From Octopus sinensis (Eukaryota), in NCBI RefSeq assembly GCF_006345805.1, contig NC_042997.1, positions 65,658,001-65,722,000 of the forward strand: 64,000 nt of DNA. The letters are read 5' to 3'. A model generated the notes under the pieces. That model saw only the letters and a program-made list of their open reading frames with translations, searched no databases and was not told the origin of the DNA. Each line of letters begins with the position of its first letter. The stretch's first letter is position 1. Positions 7,329 through 64,000 of this stretch are shown in pieces. A program made the translations under genes and the position numbers.

Positions 7329-7665
7329 AATATTAGGGAATAAATCCAAACTTACAGGGAAAAATCAGATTTAGGATTGAATCCAATTTTATAGTAAAAT
7401 ATTATATTATATTAAATTAGAGACAAAACCACTATTAGGCAAATAAAACAATGAAAGACTTAAGCCAATACATATGATTAATTTATATTATTTAAATATG
7501 TAACAAAATTATTAAAAAATATAATTAATATCCCACAATTATATTATATTTTTTAATAATTTTGTTACATATTTAAATAATATAAATTGATCATATGTAT
7601 TGGCTTAAGTCTTTCATTGTTTGATTTGCCTAATAGTGGTTTTGTCTCTAATTTAATATAATATA
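7325..7665 (-). mobile_element. (TA)n-anchored Penelope-like terminus with long inverted repeat (arms ~7403-7525 and 7543-7665)
   Basis: First ~150 bp match 39760-39900, which leads into a hammerhead; arms are near-perfect reverse complements. Confidence 0.65.
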
Positions 7666-7669
7666 TATA

Positions 7670-8087
7670 CTCTTACTCTCTCTTTTACTCTTTTACTTGT
7701 TTCAGTCATTTGACTGCGGCCATGCTGGAGCACCGCCTTTAGTCGAGCAAATCGACCCTGGGACTTATTCTTTGTAAGCCCAGTACTTATTCTATCGGTC
7801 TCTTTTGCCGAACCGCTAAGTGACGGGGACGTAAACACACCAGCATCGGTTGTCAAGCAATGCTAGGGGGACAAACACAGACACACAAACACACACATAC
7901 ATATATATATATATACATATATACGACAGGCTTCTTTCAGTTTCCGTCTACCAAATCCACTCACAAGTCATTGGTCGGCCCGGGGCTATAGCAGAAGACG
8001 CTTGCCCAAGATGCCACGCAGTGGGACTGAACCTGGAACCATGTGGTTGGTTAGCAAGCTACTTACCACACATCCACTCCTGCGCCT
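7670..8087 (-). mobile_element. SINE family B, near full length
   Basis: Minus strand has a tRNA-like head (GTGTGGTAAG...GGTTCAGTCCC), CTTGGGCAAG core-like segment, internal (TA)/(TG) tract and (GTAAAAGA)-type tail. Confidence 0.9.
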
Positions 8088-8372
8088 ATATATATATATA
8101 TTATATATATATATATATATTATATTATATTATATTATATTATATTATATTATATTAACCATGTCTTTACTATTCATATCATGTCTTTTGAAATAAACAA
8201 TGAAATATGAAGTTGCACAAGATTCTTTCTTTTTCACTTGAATTGAAATCCCATTACAAAAACAAACAAACATTGATTGCAGTAGAATGGTCATTAAATG
8301 GTTTCAAATCAACCATACGCTCAGTCAATTCTTCCACATTAAGTCATCAGTAAAATGTATGAATTAGCATTA

Positions 8373-8820
8373 CTACAGTAGAATTAGCCTGATTCGTCTT
8401 TGGATAATTCGTTACTTCACCTAAATCGTCACTTTCAATTTTCTCCTAGGGATGAATAATTAGGCAAATTCTACTGCTATTTTAAAAAACAAATTGCATG
8501 TTATTTCATTTTTAACTGCTTTTTTCCAAAAATAAGCCCATGGGCTTAAATACAGACTTAAATAATTTTGCTTCAATATTTTTTTTCTGAAAATAATAAA
8601 AATACATGAAACAAGTTTCTGACTATAAGCCCATAGGCTTAAAATCGGATGGGCTTACTTTTGGAAAGCCCAGTAAGGTTTTTATAATTTTTGTTCTAAT
8701 AAAATATAGTCAATTTTAAAAGTTTTTCTTGGCTGTAATATTTTAAGTACAGTAGAATTTAAATTTTAAGTACTTTTTAGTTTCCTTTAGAGGTGAAGAA
8801 TTAGGCAAATTCTACTGTGG
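8373..8820. mobile_element. MITE-like units with CAGTAGAATT.../...AATTCTACTG ends, with a second TIR element at 8524-8666
   Basis: Inverted pairs at 8375/8478 and 8750/8818; TTCCAAAAATAAGCCCA versus TGGGCTTACTTTTGGAA. Confidence 0.45.
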
Positions 8821-9940
8821 AAATCTTGTTCTGTATTTTTCTAGGTGTAATAACTTAAGAATATTAACATGCATGCGCCCGCATTCTTCATTGTAATTTT
8901 TAAAATACAAAAATAGCCAACGCATCCACCGTAAAAGCAGTAGGAGCTATCTGCTCTTGTTAAGGGAAAGTTAGTTTGTTAGTCGAAATTCATGCAAAAT
9001 AACGACTGCAATCCAGCTACAGTTCTTTTCAACTTAACTAAAAAAAAAAATGTCTGGATCTTGCTACTCTGAAAATCATTTCATAGTATCTTAAAGAGAA
9101 AAACCTTGTCAATTTACCCTAAGAAATAATAATCTAAATTCTGCTATTCTTGATATTGAATTAAAGTTTAAAAGCAAAGAAAAGACGTAGTAAAACTTCA
9201 GAAGTTCTTACAACTTTGGTTGTCGTAATGCTTTGTTTTCGCTTGTTTAATAAAAATTCCTTCTCTTGCTTTCATTTTGTAATAGACAACTATCATGCAG
9301 AAAATGCCAACTTCTAAATCCTGTTTTACAAAAATATGCGAATCAGTAATATGATGCGGTACAGAAAGTTATTAAACACTTTATAAATCTAAATACGAAA
9401 GAAGCCAGGATACACGTTCAAATAACAGTGAGAAATTCAGTTTGTACACACATGGGTTTTATTCAAGAATATCATAATTGAAGAAATTCAACTGTTTGTA
9501 AAAATAATCAAAAGGCAATATTTTTGTTTTGTTCTAAAAAAAATAATTTATTTTACATTCTTTTAGAACGCTGAATAATTGTGAGCAAAAGGAATTTTTA
9601 CTGTGTACAAACATTAAAATTCAGACCTCAGTCGGACGAGTATATAGTGGAAGATATGAATGGATTTGGTTTCACATACTACATATTTACATACGTTCAA
9701 CTGCCTTAAAGATGAAGCTGGATATAAAATGCATAGTATAGACGCGAGTACTGCTGAAAAGACCAAATTCCGAAATCCTGCCTGCCCAAGAACACCTAAC
9801 TTGCGCCCAGTGAAACAAATAGTTTCATGTCTTACTGTTTTCTGATTAGGTGAAAATAATTAAACCTTAAATCTTAGTAACATTTTTCTGCAATAAGTAT
9901 ATATGTATGTACGTACGTATCTATCTATCTATATATATAT

Positions 9941-9996
<56 letters not shown>

Positions 9997-9999
<3 letters not shown>

Positions 10000-10550
10000 G
10001 AAAATGCTGACAAAATAATTTAAGTAATTTAATTAGGTGAAAGTTCTTTTTACCGGTTGCGCATTTGTTATGCTTATCAAAAGTTTTTTCCTCTTATCTG
10101 ACTTTATGTTGGGTTTGCTGTCTCTTATATATGAAAAAAGAGGCTCCAGAGTTGTTTAAGATTTGCTTGGTTTCGCGCCTAAAATTTCTTGTGGGCAATG
10201 GTCAATACAATTTTGATTGGTCATTATGAAGGGGTCACGTGAATGTTTGAATGGAAGTTGGTGTTGGGGTAAGAAAAAAGGCTCCAGAGAAGTTAAAATT
10301 TGGCTAGTGTCGCGCCTAAAATTTCTTATTGGTCATAATAAAGAGGTCACGTGGATGTGGTCATAATAGAGAGGTCACGTGAATGTTTAGAATTTTCGAA
10401 AATAGCGTTGTTGAGAATTCTTATTGTTCAGGCTGGTCAGTAGACGTCATGTGGATATTTTAAATAGCTTTTTAGCGCGTAGTTAGGGAGTGTATTTTCC
10501 GCTTGACTGAATTTGAGCTGGATAAGTAAGTTCGTTTAGGACAAGAAGAG
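9997..10550 (-). mobile_element. (TA)n-flanked repeat, probable Penelope-like pLTR, with internal duplications and a degenerate hammerhead-like motif
   Basis: Bounded by (TA)n on both sides; duplicated aaaaag(a)ggctccagag...tcgcgcctaaaatttctt; hammerhead-like motif at ~10046-10085 on minus. Confidence 0.45.
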
Positions 10551-10845
10551 CTATATGTATGTATGTGTGTGCGCGCGCGCGTGTGTGTGTGTATGTATGT
10601 ATATATATGTATTGTATGTATATATATGTATATATGTATATATATATATATATATAATATATATGTGTGTATATATATATGTATATATATTGAATATATA
10701 TGTATGTGTATATATATGTATATGTATATATATATATATGTGTGTATATATATATGTATATATATATGAATATATATGTATGTGTATATATATGTGTATG
10801 TATATATATATGTGTGTGTATATATAAATATGTATATATATATAA

Positions 10846-11080: not shown

Positions 11081-11392
11081 GATTCCTGTCGTTGTGGTCT
11101 ATCATATAAGCTGAAATGAAATATAGATTTATTTGAAAATATACTATTTGGACTCAGTCAATTTCAGGCGTTATTCTCCCGTTAGTGACTTCACATATTT
11201 TACTTAAACTTTTCTCTACTGAACCAATATTCATCTTTTTTGCTCGAAATGTAGCTTATGATGTGACCAATCTAAAAATGTTAACATTATATAATTTGTT
11301 CTATATTTAAAAGTTGAGGAATTATGTATATTATTTATATTATTTACATTATTTACATTCGACGGATATTTGTCTTCATCCTGTTTGTTGTT

Positions 11393-11438
11393 AACACAAC
11401 GTTTCGGCTGATATACCCTCCAGCCTTCTTCGGGTGTT
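11393..11438 (-). ncRNA. Minimal type I hammerhead motif, core mutated (CCGAAGA)
   Basis: ACAC CCGAAGA A GGCUG-loop-CAGCC GAAAC GUU GUGU. Confidence 0.7.
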
Positions 11439-11456
11439 TGGGGGAAATTTGCCCAC

Positions 11457-11531
11457 GGGCGTATGGCGTAGTGGTTAAGAGCGCGGGCTACTAACCCCAT
11501 GATTCTGAGTTCGATTTCAAGCAGTGACCTG
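11457..11531 (+). promoter_or_regulatory. tRNA-like Pol III promoter module (A box and B box) inside the pLTR
   Basis: A box TGGCGTAGTGG 11464-11474; anticodon-like hairpin GGG-CTACTAA-CCC; B box GAGTTCGATTTC 11507-11518. Acceptor stem is poor, so not a real tRNA gene. Confidence 0.7.
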
Positions 11532-11672
11532 AACAATAATAATAATAATAATAATAACAATAATAATAATACTAATAATAATAACAATAATAATAATAAT
11601 AATAATAATAATAGCAATAATAACATAGAAAAATACCTTAGAAATGAGAACCCAGGTTCGAAATTTCCTCAA

Positions 11673-11718
11673 GATACCTAAAGAAGTATGGAGGGTATAT
11701 CAGCCGAAACGTTGTGTT
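11673..11718 (+). ncRNA. Minimal type I hammerhead motif, degenerate (CUAAAGA, broken helix II)
   Basis: AUAC CUAAAGA A GUAUG-loop-CAGCC GAAAC GUU GUGU. Confidence 0.6.
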
Positions 11719-12967
11719 AACAACAAACAAGATGAAGACAAATATCCGTCAAATGTAAATAATGTAAATAATGATCATCTAATTTGTCCCTAACTGAGTT
11801 ATGGACAAATCCTAGAAGTGGTCGTGAGTGAGTAAATGTTGACCTTAAGAATATTATTCACACACTACCATGTGTGAATGATATCTTCTTAAAAGATTAG
11901 CGCCACAACACTTGTGTTGATGAATTCTATCATATGTAGGTTTTTAATTTTATTATAGGTGTTACCACTGTTTTCGGGACATTTGGCCCTAGCAATTTTT
12001 AATTTAAAAATATTTTCTAATATAACTGGTATCATCGGATTTATCTACTGGTGACCAATCAGAAAAATTAAATTTACATATAGTTTTCTTTAGAATAATA
12101 TTTCTAAGAATAATATTTGGAGTCAAAGTTAATTTCAAACGCTAATCTCCTTTTCTTCGCCAGTTTTTACCACCGTACATTTTTCTACTGAATTTTTTTT
12201 CACATAAGTACAATGGATAGATACCTCTAACCAAGGTCTACCTTATAAGCTAATGTAAAATATTGATTTCTTTCAAGAATAATAAAATTTGGCCTACAAG
12301 TCCGTCTCAGGCGTTACTCTCCCGTTTTTGACCTCACATATTTTACTCAAACTTTTGTAACTGAAAATGTAGCTTAAGATGTGACCAATCAAAAGCTGTA
12401 AACATCATCTAATTTGGTTAAAAACTCAGTTAGTTACAAAGCGTAGAAGTGGTCGCGAGTGAGAAAATGTTGACCTTAAGAATATTACTCACACACGTCC
12501 GTGTGTGAATGATAAAGCTGTACATACTTTATCAAGGCCTTTGAACATATGCATTGAAGTATCAGTTAGAGGATTACACCAAAGTAATGCCTAAGGGTGG
12601 GATCTCAACGTTTTATCATTAAAGACGTAAATAACAGTGAAGCAAATATGTTTTCAATCTTAACTTACATAACAAGTTTCGGTGATTGGCAGAACCAAAA
12701 GTGCGTTGAAAAATGCTCGAGTAATTTGTTGCTTATGTTCTGAGTTTAAATTCCACTGAAATAATATTTGCTTTTTGGTCCTTCCGGGGTCGATAAAAGA
12801 GTACCAACCGAATACTGGAGTTGATGGCATCGGCTATTCCCATAGCTCAAAAGTGCTAGCTTTCTGACTAATTTAGAACAATTATCCTGCAATTTTATTT
12901 TTATTTTCATGCTTTTTATTATTAACTATTATAAAGGCAGTTATCTGGCAGAATCGTTTGCAAGCCG

Positions 12968-26554: not shown

Positions 26555-28515
26555 CATCATCATCCTCATCATTATTATCATGTGATAAAATCTCGCAGTT
26601 TATTTTCCAGGTATGATGGGAAGTGTCAGTTATCTACAGCCAGCAGACTAAGGTGACACTTGTTTACTGGTCATGCTTCAAGAGTCCTGCGAAGAATTCT
26701 TGCAGTTCCAAGCAATGCTGACTTTTATAGGTGTTCTACCTTCACACTCGCACCAATCCTTCTCATCCATACTAGTAGTTGAGTGCTGATACTTCCAAGT
26801 GCACCAATCACTGTTGGTGTCACGTCTACAGTCTTCATTCATCACAACTTTCCTATTTCCCACTTCAAATCGGCGTAGCTGTTTACTTTTTCTTCTTTCA
26901 CATTGTTCATGTTGTCACCGGGGCATGCTATGTCGATTGTCATACATGTTCTTTCTTTTCTTATTCACTACAACAATATCCGTTTTCCATGTCTGGCCAG
27001 GTGATTGCACTGTATCATGACATCCCACAGGATATTGCAATTCTCATCCTCGGTGACTTGTTCTGGGGTTTTCTCATACCACGTCTTTGTTCTTTGTAGG
27101 CCGTGATTTCCACAGAGCTCCCAATGGATCATTTTTGCCAAATTGTAATGGCGTCTTTTGTATTTGCGTTGTGCCAATTTCGGGCATTCGCTAACGATGC
27201 GCCGTAACGTTTCTCCCTTCTCACCACACATTCTGAATTTGTCGCTGTCGGTAGTGTTGTTAATTCTGCATTTCACAAAGTTAGTTGTTATCGCTTGTTC
27301 TTGAGCTGCGCATATTAGTGCTGCTATCCCTATCTTCAAGTCACTCCTCATCCATAGACACCGTTTTCTGTATCTGTCTTGGCGATGACATTTCTTGCAA
27401 CCTGACCGTACCTCTTTTCCTTCTATGCTTTTTTTCTTTTTTGTCGTATTTTTATTATTATCATCTTCCTACAATTTTGTTTACATTTCTTGCCGAGTGT
27501 CTTCTCAATACCTAAGGCAAAGGAGCTTACTGCATACATTGGTCGGCCATTAAAATAAACACACCAGATTGTACATTTTCATGTGATAGAAAAAAGGGGA
27601 AGACAGACAGGGGAAAGAATGGAAAAAGAAAAACGGTTGCTTTCTCATTTTCTGTGATCTTTTCTGGCGTGTGCCTATGCCATCTTTTTTCTGTTATTCC
27701 ATAGTATTGGCTTAGCTTCCAGTGTATATAGGTCTCAACTTGGTCGTGCCTGTGAATATATCCTTCTTTGCCAGGACTGGGCAGTCAGAGACAATATGAT
27801 TTATTGTTTCTTCTCCATCTCCACATATTCTGCAGTTATTTGTAATTATTTTCATTACATGTTTCTGGTAATTTCTGGTGGGAAGTCTCAGTTGCATTCT
27901 GAGTCCAATTCTGTCGAGTTCAACTTTGCCTATCAATCTTCGGGTCGATAGAATATGCACGTTTGATTACAGGGGTCGATGTAATTGACTAGCCACATCC
28001 CACGTATAATAGAAAAAATCATTATTGATGGTTTTGACTCAGGTTCGTTCTTATTCCAGGTTGGATTTATGTGGGAAACATGTACTACCTGTAACCTTAA
28101 GTATTCTCAAGCTTTCAGCAGACTTTGAAGTGCTTAAGACCCTCTTCATAATCTTTTCTATCCTTAAGAGGCAAACTTTCTGTAAAAATTCTGCAGGACA
28201 TTCTATTTCAATCGCTTTCAACCATTTGTTTATACTTTTACTTACAGTTCCCAACGCACTAATTATTACAGGCAAAACCTTTACAATTTTTTATATTTCA
28301 AATTAGTGTAATTTCAATTTTTAAGGGATTTTTTGTTTTGTTTTGTTTTTGTTTGTCATCCTCTACATTTACAATCCTGGAATCAAACGGACTTGATGGA
28401 TCAATTAGTAAGCAACTTCGTTTTTTCTTGTCTATTATTGTTTTCGCCGGTCTGTTATTTTCTAGCTTCTTTTCCGTTTGAATAAGAGAATCCCATAAAA
28501 TTTTGAATTTTTCCG

Positions 28516-48211: not shown

Positions 48212-49356
48212 AGCTCAACAGCTCGCTGGTTTCGTCAACATACATATATGAATAGATATATACATATAGACATACGTATGTACATACTCTTATATATATA
48301 TATATATATGTTTCTTTTCCTATGATTAGTAGTGGAATAAATACAGAAGTCGCACAATTTATGTTTATATTTTTACTTTATTTTCTATGTAATATAATGA
48401 CATTTAGTTTTAGAAGAACTTTTTATCAAACAGATATAAATGAATATTTAAGTGAAAACTGTGAAAATCATCTTGTGTAGTATTAAACACAAACAGTACT
48501 AAATTTAACCAGAGGAACAAAGTGTATTTTTGCATTAGAAGATTAGGCAAAAGATTCCGATAACCTTCATAGGAACTGACAAAATAAATAAACCCAATAA
48601 ATCGCATCGTAGTATTTGGGAAGAGACTCCATAGTACATTTTCGACTTAATTTTCTAATTTTCCCTTCTCCCTTCAGATGCTGAACGGTGGCTTACGAAA
48701 ATTTGTTTCTTCAAATTATTTTCTAATAATCCTAAAAATATCTTAATGTTTTATGTAAAATATCGTAATGTTTTATGTAAAAATAATTTAATTATTTCGA
48801 TGTACTTGTTTGGCGGGTGCAAAACCACTAACTTCTCTTCGTCATTTATAATTTAGTGTCAAAACGTTCGTCGTGCTAATAGATGCTTAAAAGAAGTTAA
48901 GATGTTTTTTGTGATTTTGAATGGTTAATATGCGTCTTCCAACCTGTAGGTGCTAATCATTAGATTACAATATGTATAAATATTGAAACCTTACAATACA
49001 TGTTTATTAAGCAGGTTTTAAATTTCAATGAAGATTTCGTAGATGTCCATTTATAATTACGTATATCAGATATCAGACTTTAGAATTGAAATTAAAAGTT
49101 TAATTTTTACGTTCAGCACACGAAGATAAGAATTAGGATGAATGTAGAAGCCGCACAATATAATCTTTAGTGCTACAGACGCTAGATTACAATGGTGATT
49201 TAGAAAATTTTCAAATCTACACACCCATTCATGTTTGCTTGATAAGGATTTTGCTTTGTTAAATCATACAGTTCTATATTTAAGAGATGAGGAATTATAT
49301 GCATTATTTACATTATTTACATTTGACGGAAATTTGTCCTCATCTTGTTTGTTGTT

Positions 49357-49402
49357 AACACAACGTTTCGGCTGATATACCCTCCAACCTTCATCAGGTG
49401 TC
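49357..49402 (-). ncRNA. Minimal type I hammerhead ribozyme, intact core
   Basis: GACAC CUGAUGA A GGUUG-loop-CAGCC GAAAC GUU GUGUU; palindromic AACGUU helix III. Confidence 0.85.
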
Positions 49403-49437
49403 TTGGGGGAAATTTCGAATTTTCGATGTTATTATTA

Positions 49438-49503
<66 letters not shown>

Positions 49504-50195
49504 TCACTGCCTGGAATCGAACTCGGAATCCTGGGGTTAGTAGCCTGTTTTTGGTCATATTCTCTTCTATTGGTGGTTTTACTCGGAGATATTTGCGAAG
49601 TGTCATATTACTCTTGAATACTGTCCTGATATCATATGGGCCACATATCTTTTGTATCTTTTCGAAGAGGCCTTTCACATAGGGTAGACAGACTGTGTAC
49701 AGTTTCTTGATTTCTTCCTCTCTTTTCTTCATACTTGGAGTGGATAGTATGTTTTGGGGTAGTTGTTGCTTAATAGATTGTTACTGAGCTTGATCATTTC
49801 TTCGTGGTGGGTATCACGATCGCTACATATATACTTTCCTCCAATCCCTCCCTTTACACTGTATGGATGGTGGGAATTAAAGTTGAGGTATCGTCCAGTG
49901 AAGGTCGGCTTGCGGTATACGGATGTCCTGAATCCATACTTGGTGCTAGTTATTAATACCTCCAGGAATGCTAGCTGATTGACTTCTTCCTTTTCCATTG
50001 TGAACTGTATGGATGACTTTATTGAGTTCACATGATCTAATACCACTTGATTTATAGGCCCTAAAATTCACTCTATAATTGCCCACGAGCAGACGGCGTA
50101 GTGGTTAAGATCGCGGGCTACTAACCCCAAGATTCCGAGTAATAATAATAATAATAATAATTAGGAATGAGAACCCGGGTTCGAAATTTTCCAAA

Positions 50196-50241
50196 GACAC
50201 ATGATGAAGGCTGGGGGGTATATCAGCCGAAACATTGTGTT
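50196..50241 (+). ncRNA. Hammerhead motif, mutated (AUGAUGA; GAAACAUU)
   Basis: Inverted pLTR copy of 49357-49402 with two core/helix III changes. Confidence 0.65.
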
Positions 50242-50729
50242 AACAACAAACAAGATGACAAAAATCCGTCAAATGCAAATAATGTAAATAACTGTTAAAT
50301 CATAGGTTGATATTTTATGCGAAAATATAAACTTGCCTTGTAAGGTTTCTACATAAAGCTCCCTTTATAATTTTTGCACGTAAAACATTTCTCACAACGT
50401 TATTAAATAAAACTACCTCTTACCAAGATTATGAGAAAATCATTTTAAAATGAAATTCTTGTAGATTAATTTTGAACATCATAGGAGACAAGAGAAGATT
50501 CGATAATCTACGTGAAAATAAAAAATGTTTATCCTATTAGAACAGACACACATGTATGGAGAGATTGCCGTGACAATGTTTATATCACAGACGCTAAATT
50601 TCATAGAAAATTACGAAATATTCAATTCAAAGTACATATATATGAGGATGAGTTCTTCAACTTAAAATATCATAAAATGTTATCCATTATTTTATATAAC
50701 AAAATTATATTTGTATTATACGCTTTCTC

Positions 50730-63044: not shown

Positions 63045-64000
63045 GGGGGGGGGAGAGGAAAAAAATGATCAATAGGGATCGTTATCACAGAAATGTCAAT
63101 ATGAAGTGTAAAGGGGGGACAGGTGAGGTTTACCCGGGAAAGAAAGCCTGCGGAAAAGACCACGGTAACCTCGTCAATGAAGTCACATTTATATTTCTTT
63201 TTTTTTTTTTTTTTTTTTTGCAATAAGAACTCTCTGTTTTCGATTTCTGGGTTCATAGGACTATGCTCAAGTGGCTTCGTCATTCATACGTGCCATTCTT
63301 GCTACATTCACCCATCTTTTTTTAAAACATTCGCTAGACAAAACTTGCCTCTCTACTCTCCACTTTCCTTTTCAAGTGGTACTTGAAGAAGTTGATGAGA
63401 GATTGACCAGAGAGGAAAGTGTTTGTCTCCAATCCTTTCAGACGCGTCCACCAGATACATTCTTTCGCCATAGCCACAAGGATGATGAAAATAGCTCTTC
63501 CTTCCCGTTTGAAGGAAGGAGGCGTGACAATATTGACGATAGACTCAGCTGATAAACCGACTCGTCCCACACGTGACAGCAGTTGTTCGACATAAGCCCA
63601 CAGGTCGGAAATTGTTGGACACTGAACGAGTGCGTGCAGAACGGTTTCGTCGCTCTGACCGCATCTCGGGCAGGTCGGCCCCGTGTTTCTCGAGCCGTGT
63701 CTGTAGAGCTTATCCCGAACGGGTAGCGCTTCTCGGTAGCACTGCCAGGCCAGGGATCTCTGGAAGTTGTCCATGGGCCCTGGCCCGAAAGTCGTCCCGA
63801 ACAGGCGGGTCAGGTACTCCTCGTCGACGTCCAGGTTCGCCCCGAGCTCGTCGTCGTACCTCCCCTCCACTAAACCCCTATAGAATGCTTGGTTGTGTTG
63901 AAGTCACTTAAGGTCGACCCAGGACGGCAGAGTTGCTTGAGAGCAACGCGACACTCGCGGTGCCATTCGCCCTTCCTCGGCCTCTTTTTGATCCACGACT
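62853..64000 (-). mobile_element. Young L1/Tx1-type LINE 3' end (ORF2 zinc-binding domain and 3' UTR); runs off window
   Basis: LAWQCYREALPVRDKL...TCPRCGQSDETVLHALVQC (zf-RVT-like); GC-rich; ends GCCCTGTGTGGCTAATAAAGAAAC next to (TATC)n. Confidence 0.9.

Follow-up and report, generated by a model that had tools for sequence, protein, structure and literature searches.

A tRNA-derived head opens the terminal repeat of a protein-coding Penelope/Poseidon-type element in Octopus sinensis and may serve RNA polymerase III as a promoter

We analysed a 64,000-nucleotide stretch of Octopus sinensis DNA (hereafter, the window; NCBI RefSeq assembly GCF_006345805.1, contig NC_042997.1, positions 65,658,001 to 65,722,000 of the forward strand), in which a repeated unit joins a head with tRNA-type A and B boxes, an (AAT)n run and a hammerhead-like motif. 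The unit is the pseudo-long terminal repeat (pLTR) of a protein-coding Penelope/Poseidon-type element, and the tRNA-derived head is part of it. The order of head, triplet run and hammerhead, which an initial annotation had reported at three places, was seen at all of them, and the three units are parts of two insertions, 11297-11772 and 49269-50291 (Table 1). In the first, an inverted hammerhead-and-tail arm is followed by a direct pLTR; this inverted arm (11297-11450) is a fourth unit that had not been listed. The second is a single insertion with a long inverted arm and then a direct pLTR, framed by an exact 12-bp target-site duplication. Its inverted arm comprises a reverse transcriptase (RT) fragment, an internal deletion, a half head, the triplet run, the hammerhead and the tail. 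An RT fragment flanked by pLTRs had been described here and is present, with the qualification that it is broken, on the minus strand and inside the inverted arm.

The units differ in their state of preservation. The minus-strand unit retains only the 3' half of the head (49545-49498), followed by (AAT)n (49499-49429) and a hammerhead that keeps its core (49397-49391); the endonuclease, the spacer and the 5' half of the head were deleted between the RT fragment (49560..50049) and 49545. The plus-strand unit of the same insertion has its tRNA-like +1 at 50087, a head (50087-50140) broken off within the B box, and a mutated hammerhead. The hammerhead of the direct pLTR at 11297-11772 is decayed, with CTAAAGA in place of CTGANGA in the core and changes on the 5' arm of stem II. 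In the B box of the same pLTR, C61 is replaced by T; the family form is GTTCGATTC (exact in 35/90 copies).

Table 1 Features of the two insertions in the window.
Feature	Position	Strand	Remarks
Target-site duplication of about 14 bp, left copy	11286..11299	+	12/14 identical to 11774-11787; about 3 bases overlap the element end
Inverted arm: 3' part of hammerhead and full pLTR tail	11297..11450	-	91% identity to 11661-11772
6-base leader; putative RNA start at G 11451; small hairpin with first head bases	11451..11456	+	
tRNA-derived head, tRNA-like +1 at 11457	11457..11531	+	A box 11464-11474; B-box core 11509-11517
(AAY)n spacer; length varies strongly between copies	11532..11623	+	
Start of open reading frame (ATG 11644) and first codons, 9-base tail repeats at end	11644..11772	+	
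Minimal type I hammerhead within start of open reading frame; predicted cut after 11713	11674..11717	+	catalytic core mutated
Target-site duplication, right copy	11774..11787	+	
Exact 12-bp target-site duplication, left copy	49257..49268	+	
pLTR of inverted arm	49269..49545	-	half head, (AAT)n, hammerhead with intact core, full tail
Broken C-terminal RT fragment	49560..50049	-	
Direct arm	50050..50291	+	spacer after stop of open reading frame, leader 50081, head, (AAT)n, ATG 50167, hammerhead, short tail
12-bp target-site duplication, right copy	50293..50304	+	

The coding unit of the family spans about 2.5 kb and consists of the head, (AAY)n, an ATG about 20 bases on, an open reading frame (ORF), its stop, a spacer of about 30 bases and the head again; at one locus (L097) the 5' head, the ORF and the 3' head are continuous. 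Along the ORF, the hammerhead lies within the first 25 codons and is followed by the 9-base tail repeats, which leave the reading frame unbroken, an N-terminal region, the RT and, at the C-terminus, a GIY-YIG-like domain. The RT in this single ORF was recognised by Pfam (RVT_1, E 3e-10) in a 432-aa open stretch of locus L108. A Pfam search with the C-terminus of the family itself gave no GIY-YIG endonuclease match, and we base that assignment on its alignment over the PF01541 region of a homolog, P0031 (29%, E 4e-21). The pLTRs, inverted 5' arms and variable tail are present as in Penelope/Poseidon elements, and the translations, inspected by eye, have no zinc-finger motif in the segment linking RT to endonuclease (EN), unlike Neptune and Nematis. 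The minimal hammerhead motif keeps CTGANGA in 83 of 124 anchored copies and GAAACGTT in 59, and its layout agrees with that in the available text of PMC4209133.

The family protein has 562 homologs at E<=1e-20; the closest named one is from Octopus sinensis (86% identity over 39% of the query), and others reach 60-72% identity. An intact ORF was not found among the family copies examined, nor was a recurring spliced form or intron signal among 148 ATG contexts. Contig pieces from four organisms (A, C, D and E) join the ORF end, the spacer and the head, with a fold-back loose end at the head in 4/4. Relatives in metagenomes are distant (25-51%) and mostly without a pLTR in their contig, which makes them a poor guide to the time at which the head was acquired; the two with a hammerhead-bearing pLTR have no A/B boxes. 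At two loci (L078 at about 2140, oriented, and L102 at about 1000), N-terminal ORF pieces are joined through a short A run to a head close to its leader, an arrangement that resembles template jumping.

The head is a fixed part of the element. Its first 18 bases have 666 exact matches, against 0 for the reversed control, so the head family is not a product of chance. Copies were sampled as 90 of the first 100 such places in genome order, two of them neighbours in one locus. Among these, 84/90 were linked to the hammerhead, the spacer or the ORF, always at the same position. A hammerhead match was likewise found in the locus for 27 of the 30 best head matches, and of 30 loci selected by their RT, 23 had the head downstream, three had a hammerhead without a head match and four had neither, that is, 23 of the 26 that reach a pLTR carry the head. 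The suggestion of the initial annotation that this family captured the head inside its pLTR is thus borne out; most copies have the head, and linkage rather than an independent short interspersed nuclear element (SINE) is what the copies display. Its further idea of SINE-like units mobilised in Penelope style also agrees with the data, which contain short head-to-tail units with inverted arms and target duplications. These units are the pLTR of the coding element, and no non-coding family replicating apart from the sequence of its partner was found. A solo-only subfamily was considered and rejected: one of seven variants gave p=0.011, but a second grouping, in which two mis-oriented RT-selected loci counted as missing, gave p=0.24.

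Could the head instead represent a separate SINE family, inserted only in certain Penelope copies? Six of the 90 heads have no other element part within about 780 bases, and one insert (L013:1480-1590, minus strand) consists of the head and about four AAT units between short direct repeats, being the only head-only insert among the 30 best head matches. The constant position in the 84 linked copies speaks against such an origin. So does the uniform start of the six unlinked copies, each of which begins at the leader and has the fold-back signature; three of these end inside the head, the other three within the triplet run. In the DNA examined, further tRNA-like heads score at most 59 against this one, no higher than true tRNAs. 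We therefore consider an independent SINE highly improbable.

Neither Rfam nor ARAGORN called a tRNA or a hammerhead in these units. A natural copy of the head, aligned to tRNA genes from the same genome, gave best scores of 56.5-60, whereas 300 shuffles reached at most 43.5, and its A and B boxes match the tRNA-type consensus. Among the tRNAs retrieved, Ala-TGC and Arg-TCT were the top matches; as they score alike and above the shuffles, a tRNA origin is supported, with the parent isotype left between these candidates. A tRNA-Thr(AGT) parent was also considered and rejected: of two motif searches, one returned only family-like heads and the other nothing, and the scores of Thr genes were lower than those of Ala and Arg. 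Folding of the single strand was without clear signal at the head (z -0.7 and +1.45), and at the hammerhead stretches the results were mixed (z -0.1 to -2.4). Several further tRNA-like heads (L141, L124, L128, L143, L039 and L087) are abundant and have bodies of their own; they are probably ordinary SINE families that share with this head no more than a general resemblance to tRNA.

The 5' ends of the copies form a sharp wall. In 54 of the 90 copies the element stops within 7 bases upstream of the leader G, which lies six bases before the tRNA-like +1, where the stop rate further upstream predicts 2.6. Thirty-one of these wall copies are blunt or have a very short fold-back, and 23 have a fold-back arm of 8 or more bases. 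The wall is located 13 bases before the A box, at a T/G step, and a type 2 (tRNA-type) start of RNA polymerase III (Pol III) is expected at about such a distance. When copies were selected by hammerhead and tail (n=30), only one extended beyond the wall, as judged by eye. Loci selected by the ORF N-terminus had a direct upstream head in 6/30, of which four start at about -8 to +4 (by eye); of the other two, one starts near -31 and one within the head. In a control Penelope-like family sampled likewise from a 3' anchor, 30 5' ends were spread over 14 to >1500 bases, with at most 3/30 in any 8-base window. The fold-back arms duplicate the head but leave out the spacer; an RNA template ending at the leader would be the simplest explanation. 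Two unlinked cases (L006 and L061/L059) share a near-identical junction, in which the inverted arm extends into the spacer by about 16 bases and the direct arm begins right after the ORF stop; either a second, minor start or descent from one parent copy may account for this.

The 3' ends were counted in the 69 of 90 copies with a direct hammerhead-tail match. Not one of the 69 has its end 4 bases or fewer from the GUU site. In 66 the copy extends 40 or more bases beyond this site, almost always to one of two clusters of ends, about +49 to +75 or about +91 to +104 from it. The inserted template was thus uncut or re-joined there, and the RNA of roughly 260 nt with a ribozyme-cut 3' end that had been envisaged for this unit is not supported, nor is it by the mutated core of the copy at 11674..11717. 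Single minimal hammerheads are inactive in vitro according to the available text of PMC4209133, and short units with one hammerhead accordingly fit an uncut RNA. Re-joined circles are proposed in the same text, and ORF-linked copies could, by analogy, derive from them. Two aspects had been overlooked in the initial annotation, namely that the hammerhead lies within the first codons of the ORF and that ORF-bearing copies share the start site. One locus (L030) has three hammerhead-and-tail units in tandem at a spacing of about 150 bases beside a head, which is retrozyme-like.

Pol III terminates at runs of four or more T, a threshold assumed here for molluscs. Across 2316 columns of 16 long copies, there were 0 sense-strand TTTT sites shared by half of the copies; single copies had 0-6 TTTT, each site occurring in at most 3 copies. 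The control family, with equal T content and 16 copies, had 10 shared sites in 2289 columns. A null model keeping the codon usage of the family predicted 3.2 shared sites, with P(0)=0.033. The phenylalanine (Phe) codons show no bias special to the family (TTT:TTC 28:41, like Tyr 40:63). As a sign of Pol III use, the lack of shared TTTT is suggestive only. The next genomic T run was found 9-203 bases beyond the tail in 13/14 copies.

Since the pLTR opens with tRNA-derived sequence and most copies begin just before the head, the element is likely transcribed by Pol III, an enzyme commonly regarded as serving short non-coding elements alone. With about as much confidence as doubt, we propose from these sequence patterns that the tRNA-derived head acts as an internal Pol III promoter that gives both short SINE-like RNAs and the coding RNA. 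Pol III would initiate at the leader, 6 bases before the head. Solo and 3' pLTRs would give short RNAs, which would remain uncut because a minimal hammerhead is inactive when alone. These RNAs would terminate at the first T run met in the genomic flank and could be inserted by the enzymes of the element as SINE-like units. From the 5' pLTR, a full-length RNA would be made, no TTTT terminator lying in the path. The RT may then prime in the tail, and the cDNA end would fold on the leader hairpin and prime the second strand, leaving palindromic junctions. Given that copies with the ORF begin at the wall too, the role of the promoter may extend beyond a SINE-like by-product to the coding element itself. 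More tentatively, and short of an even chance in our judgement, this could be an autonomous coding retrotransposon that uses Pol III from end to end: with a captured tRNA promoter, every TTTT lost over about 2.5 kb, an uncapped RNA translated behind a tRNA-like/(AAY)n leader, the second strand primed on a 5' hairpin, and SINE-like units shed from every terminal repeat.

Several observations, given in this and the next paragraph, weigh against Pol III transcription of the element. The sampling needed an exact 18-mer starting at the leader, so copies beginning inside the head went uncounted. Past the wall run 36/90 copies, 9 stopping 8-59 bases upstream and 27 continuing 60 or more bases into the ORF, and some copies end near -24 to -33 instead of at the wall. 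Two copies counted at the wall (L267 and L308) look ORF-linked with the spacer deleted, which would lower the count to 52. The wall also coincides with a small hairpin of about -7 kcal/mol. RNA data came from organism B, a relative, for which roughly 6% of each of three unstranded raw runs was used, with 7,429-10,840 reads on a family copy; the strands were equal, no start or end pile-ups were detected on that copy, and 68-72% of the reads continue into unrelated flanks, as expected for host read-through, a pattern compatible with Pol III transcription or its absence. The hairpin and the lack of an RNA start in these unstranded reads would both be explained if the head were an inert captured tRNA or SINE piece, with all RNAs being long Pol II products and the wall arising from cDNA fold-back at the leader hairpin. 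The AT just upstream (the fold-back signature) in 39/54 wall copies is in line with this, as is an initiator-like motif in the spacer, seen by eye. However, the final 700 bases of the ORF contain hairpins of similar stability and a further three perfect 5-bp stems, and no comparable pile-up was observed at any of them, so similar hairpins do not stop 60% of copies; the fold-back arms copy the head and not the spacer; and the A/B boxes match the consensus, with the wall at the expected distance from the A box. An inert head is, in our view, improbable.

The terminator result is modest, as the control protein has roughly twice the Phe content (about 5% vs about 2.5%), and 11 metagenome relatives are slightly low in TTTT too (22 runs vs 28 expected). 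Pol III has been deemed too weakly processive for coding elements (PMC10886601, available text), and an uncapped Pol III RNA must still be translated. An alternative is that the head is a Pol III promoter for short SINE-like units only; Pol II or host read-through would then supply the coding RNA, and chance together with low Phe would account for the absence of TTTT from the ORF. Consistent with this, the wall is strongest among short copies, the TTTT null gives a P of only about 0.03, and close homologs are Phe-poor as well (mean 2.9%). The sole mapped Penelope promoter, in the Drosophila pLTR, is TATA-less, internal and long interspersed nuclear element (LINE)-like, with an intron (PMC2377424, available text). 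On the other side, 4/6 of the ORF-bearing copies preceded by a head start at the wall site, shared TTTT sites number 10 in the control family vs 0 here, and no solo-only subfamily was found (p=0.24). We regard a promoter restricted to short units as somewhat unlikely.

Whatever its transcription, the tRNA-headed pLTR of a coding element is a real, high-copy and new form of Penelope/Poseidon. As in the Penelope/Poseidon elements described in the available text of Cervera and de la Pena 2014 (PMC4209133) and Craig et al. 2021 (PMC8557442), there is a single ORF with RT and a GIY-YIG-like domain, pLTRs and inverted arms, and the hammerheads share the minimal type I form, the extra base before stem II and the palindromic stem III (PMC4209133). 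Unlike in the elements known from those texts, the pLTR here opens with a tRNA-derived A/B-box head and has a sharp 5' start. A Penelope pLTR with a tRNA head was not found described in the literature searched, mostly outside subscription papers and partly seen in excerpt; a catalogue entry for the short unit as an octopus SINE may already exist, and the hammerhead families listed in the supplements of PMC4209133 could include this family.

Three other systems are similar in part, each compared through the available portion of its source. The TRIMp3 elements (Cassandra, Helenus and Ajax; Kojima 2024, PMC10886601) also have a small-RNA-derived Pol III promoter in the terminal repeat, but are non-coding long terminal repeat (LTR) elements of 0.3-1.3 kb, whereas this Penelope is coding, measures about 2.5 kb and carries pLTRs as well as inverted arms, and is thus not a TRIMp3 member; no separate search for a primer-binding site or polypurine tract was made. 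The schistosome Sm-alpha/Sj-alpha SINE-like repeats (PMC6765202) likewise place a hammerhead after a Pol III promoter. They are non-coding and often tandem with a canonical hammerhead active in vitro, while the hammerhead here is minimal, lies within an ORF and is uncut in inserted copies. Animal non-LTR retrozymes (PMC7229834; Li, Clavereau and Pollet 2026, 10.64898/2026.07.22.740005) are short hammerhead units proposed to be pLTR-derived and Penelope-moved, and tRNA is unmentioned in the available main text of the latter. They are defined as tandem arrays, in contrast to the units here, which have a fixed 5' start and are mostly solo, inverted pairs or ORF-linked, with a short tandem in 1/30 loci (L030).

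From the fixed 5' start one can see where the fold-back inversions originate, and from the fixed 3' ends that the RNAs inserted were not cut at the hammerhead. The findings also suggest a route by which tRNA-bearing non-coding Penelope parasites might arise from a pLTR. Pol III promoters are known in non-coding retroelements such as SINEs and TRIMp3. If the proposal is true, a coding Penelope with a Pol III promoter would be a counter-example to the argument, made in the available text of PMC10886601, that the autonomous partners of TRIMp3 must use Pol II. With a promoter of its own, the element would in addition no longer depend on a partial tandem, which Penelope usually requires to have a promoter (PMC2377424, available text).

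The control family is a second Penelope-like family (L131:125-928, minus strand; L181-L210; L314-L343). It is younger, with copies 96-98% identical, an open stretch of up to 712 aa in L210 and a 3' 18-mer with 455 exact matches; its RT-EN linker is zinc-finger-like, so it is probably of Neptune type, and a simple hammerhead pattern had no match in it. In the window, the insertion at 11297-11772 lies within a host repeat (11100-11296 and 11773-11890), an uninterrupted relative of which occurs about 600 bases downstream (12290-12510, visible near 12380-12440). Two further open stretches, 63334-63903 and 26968-27468, both on the minus strand, have cysteine-histidine motifs typical of non-LTR retrotransposon C-termini.
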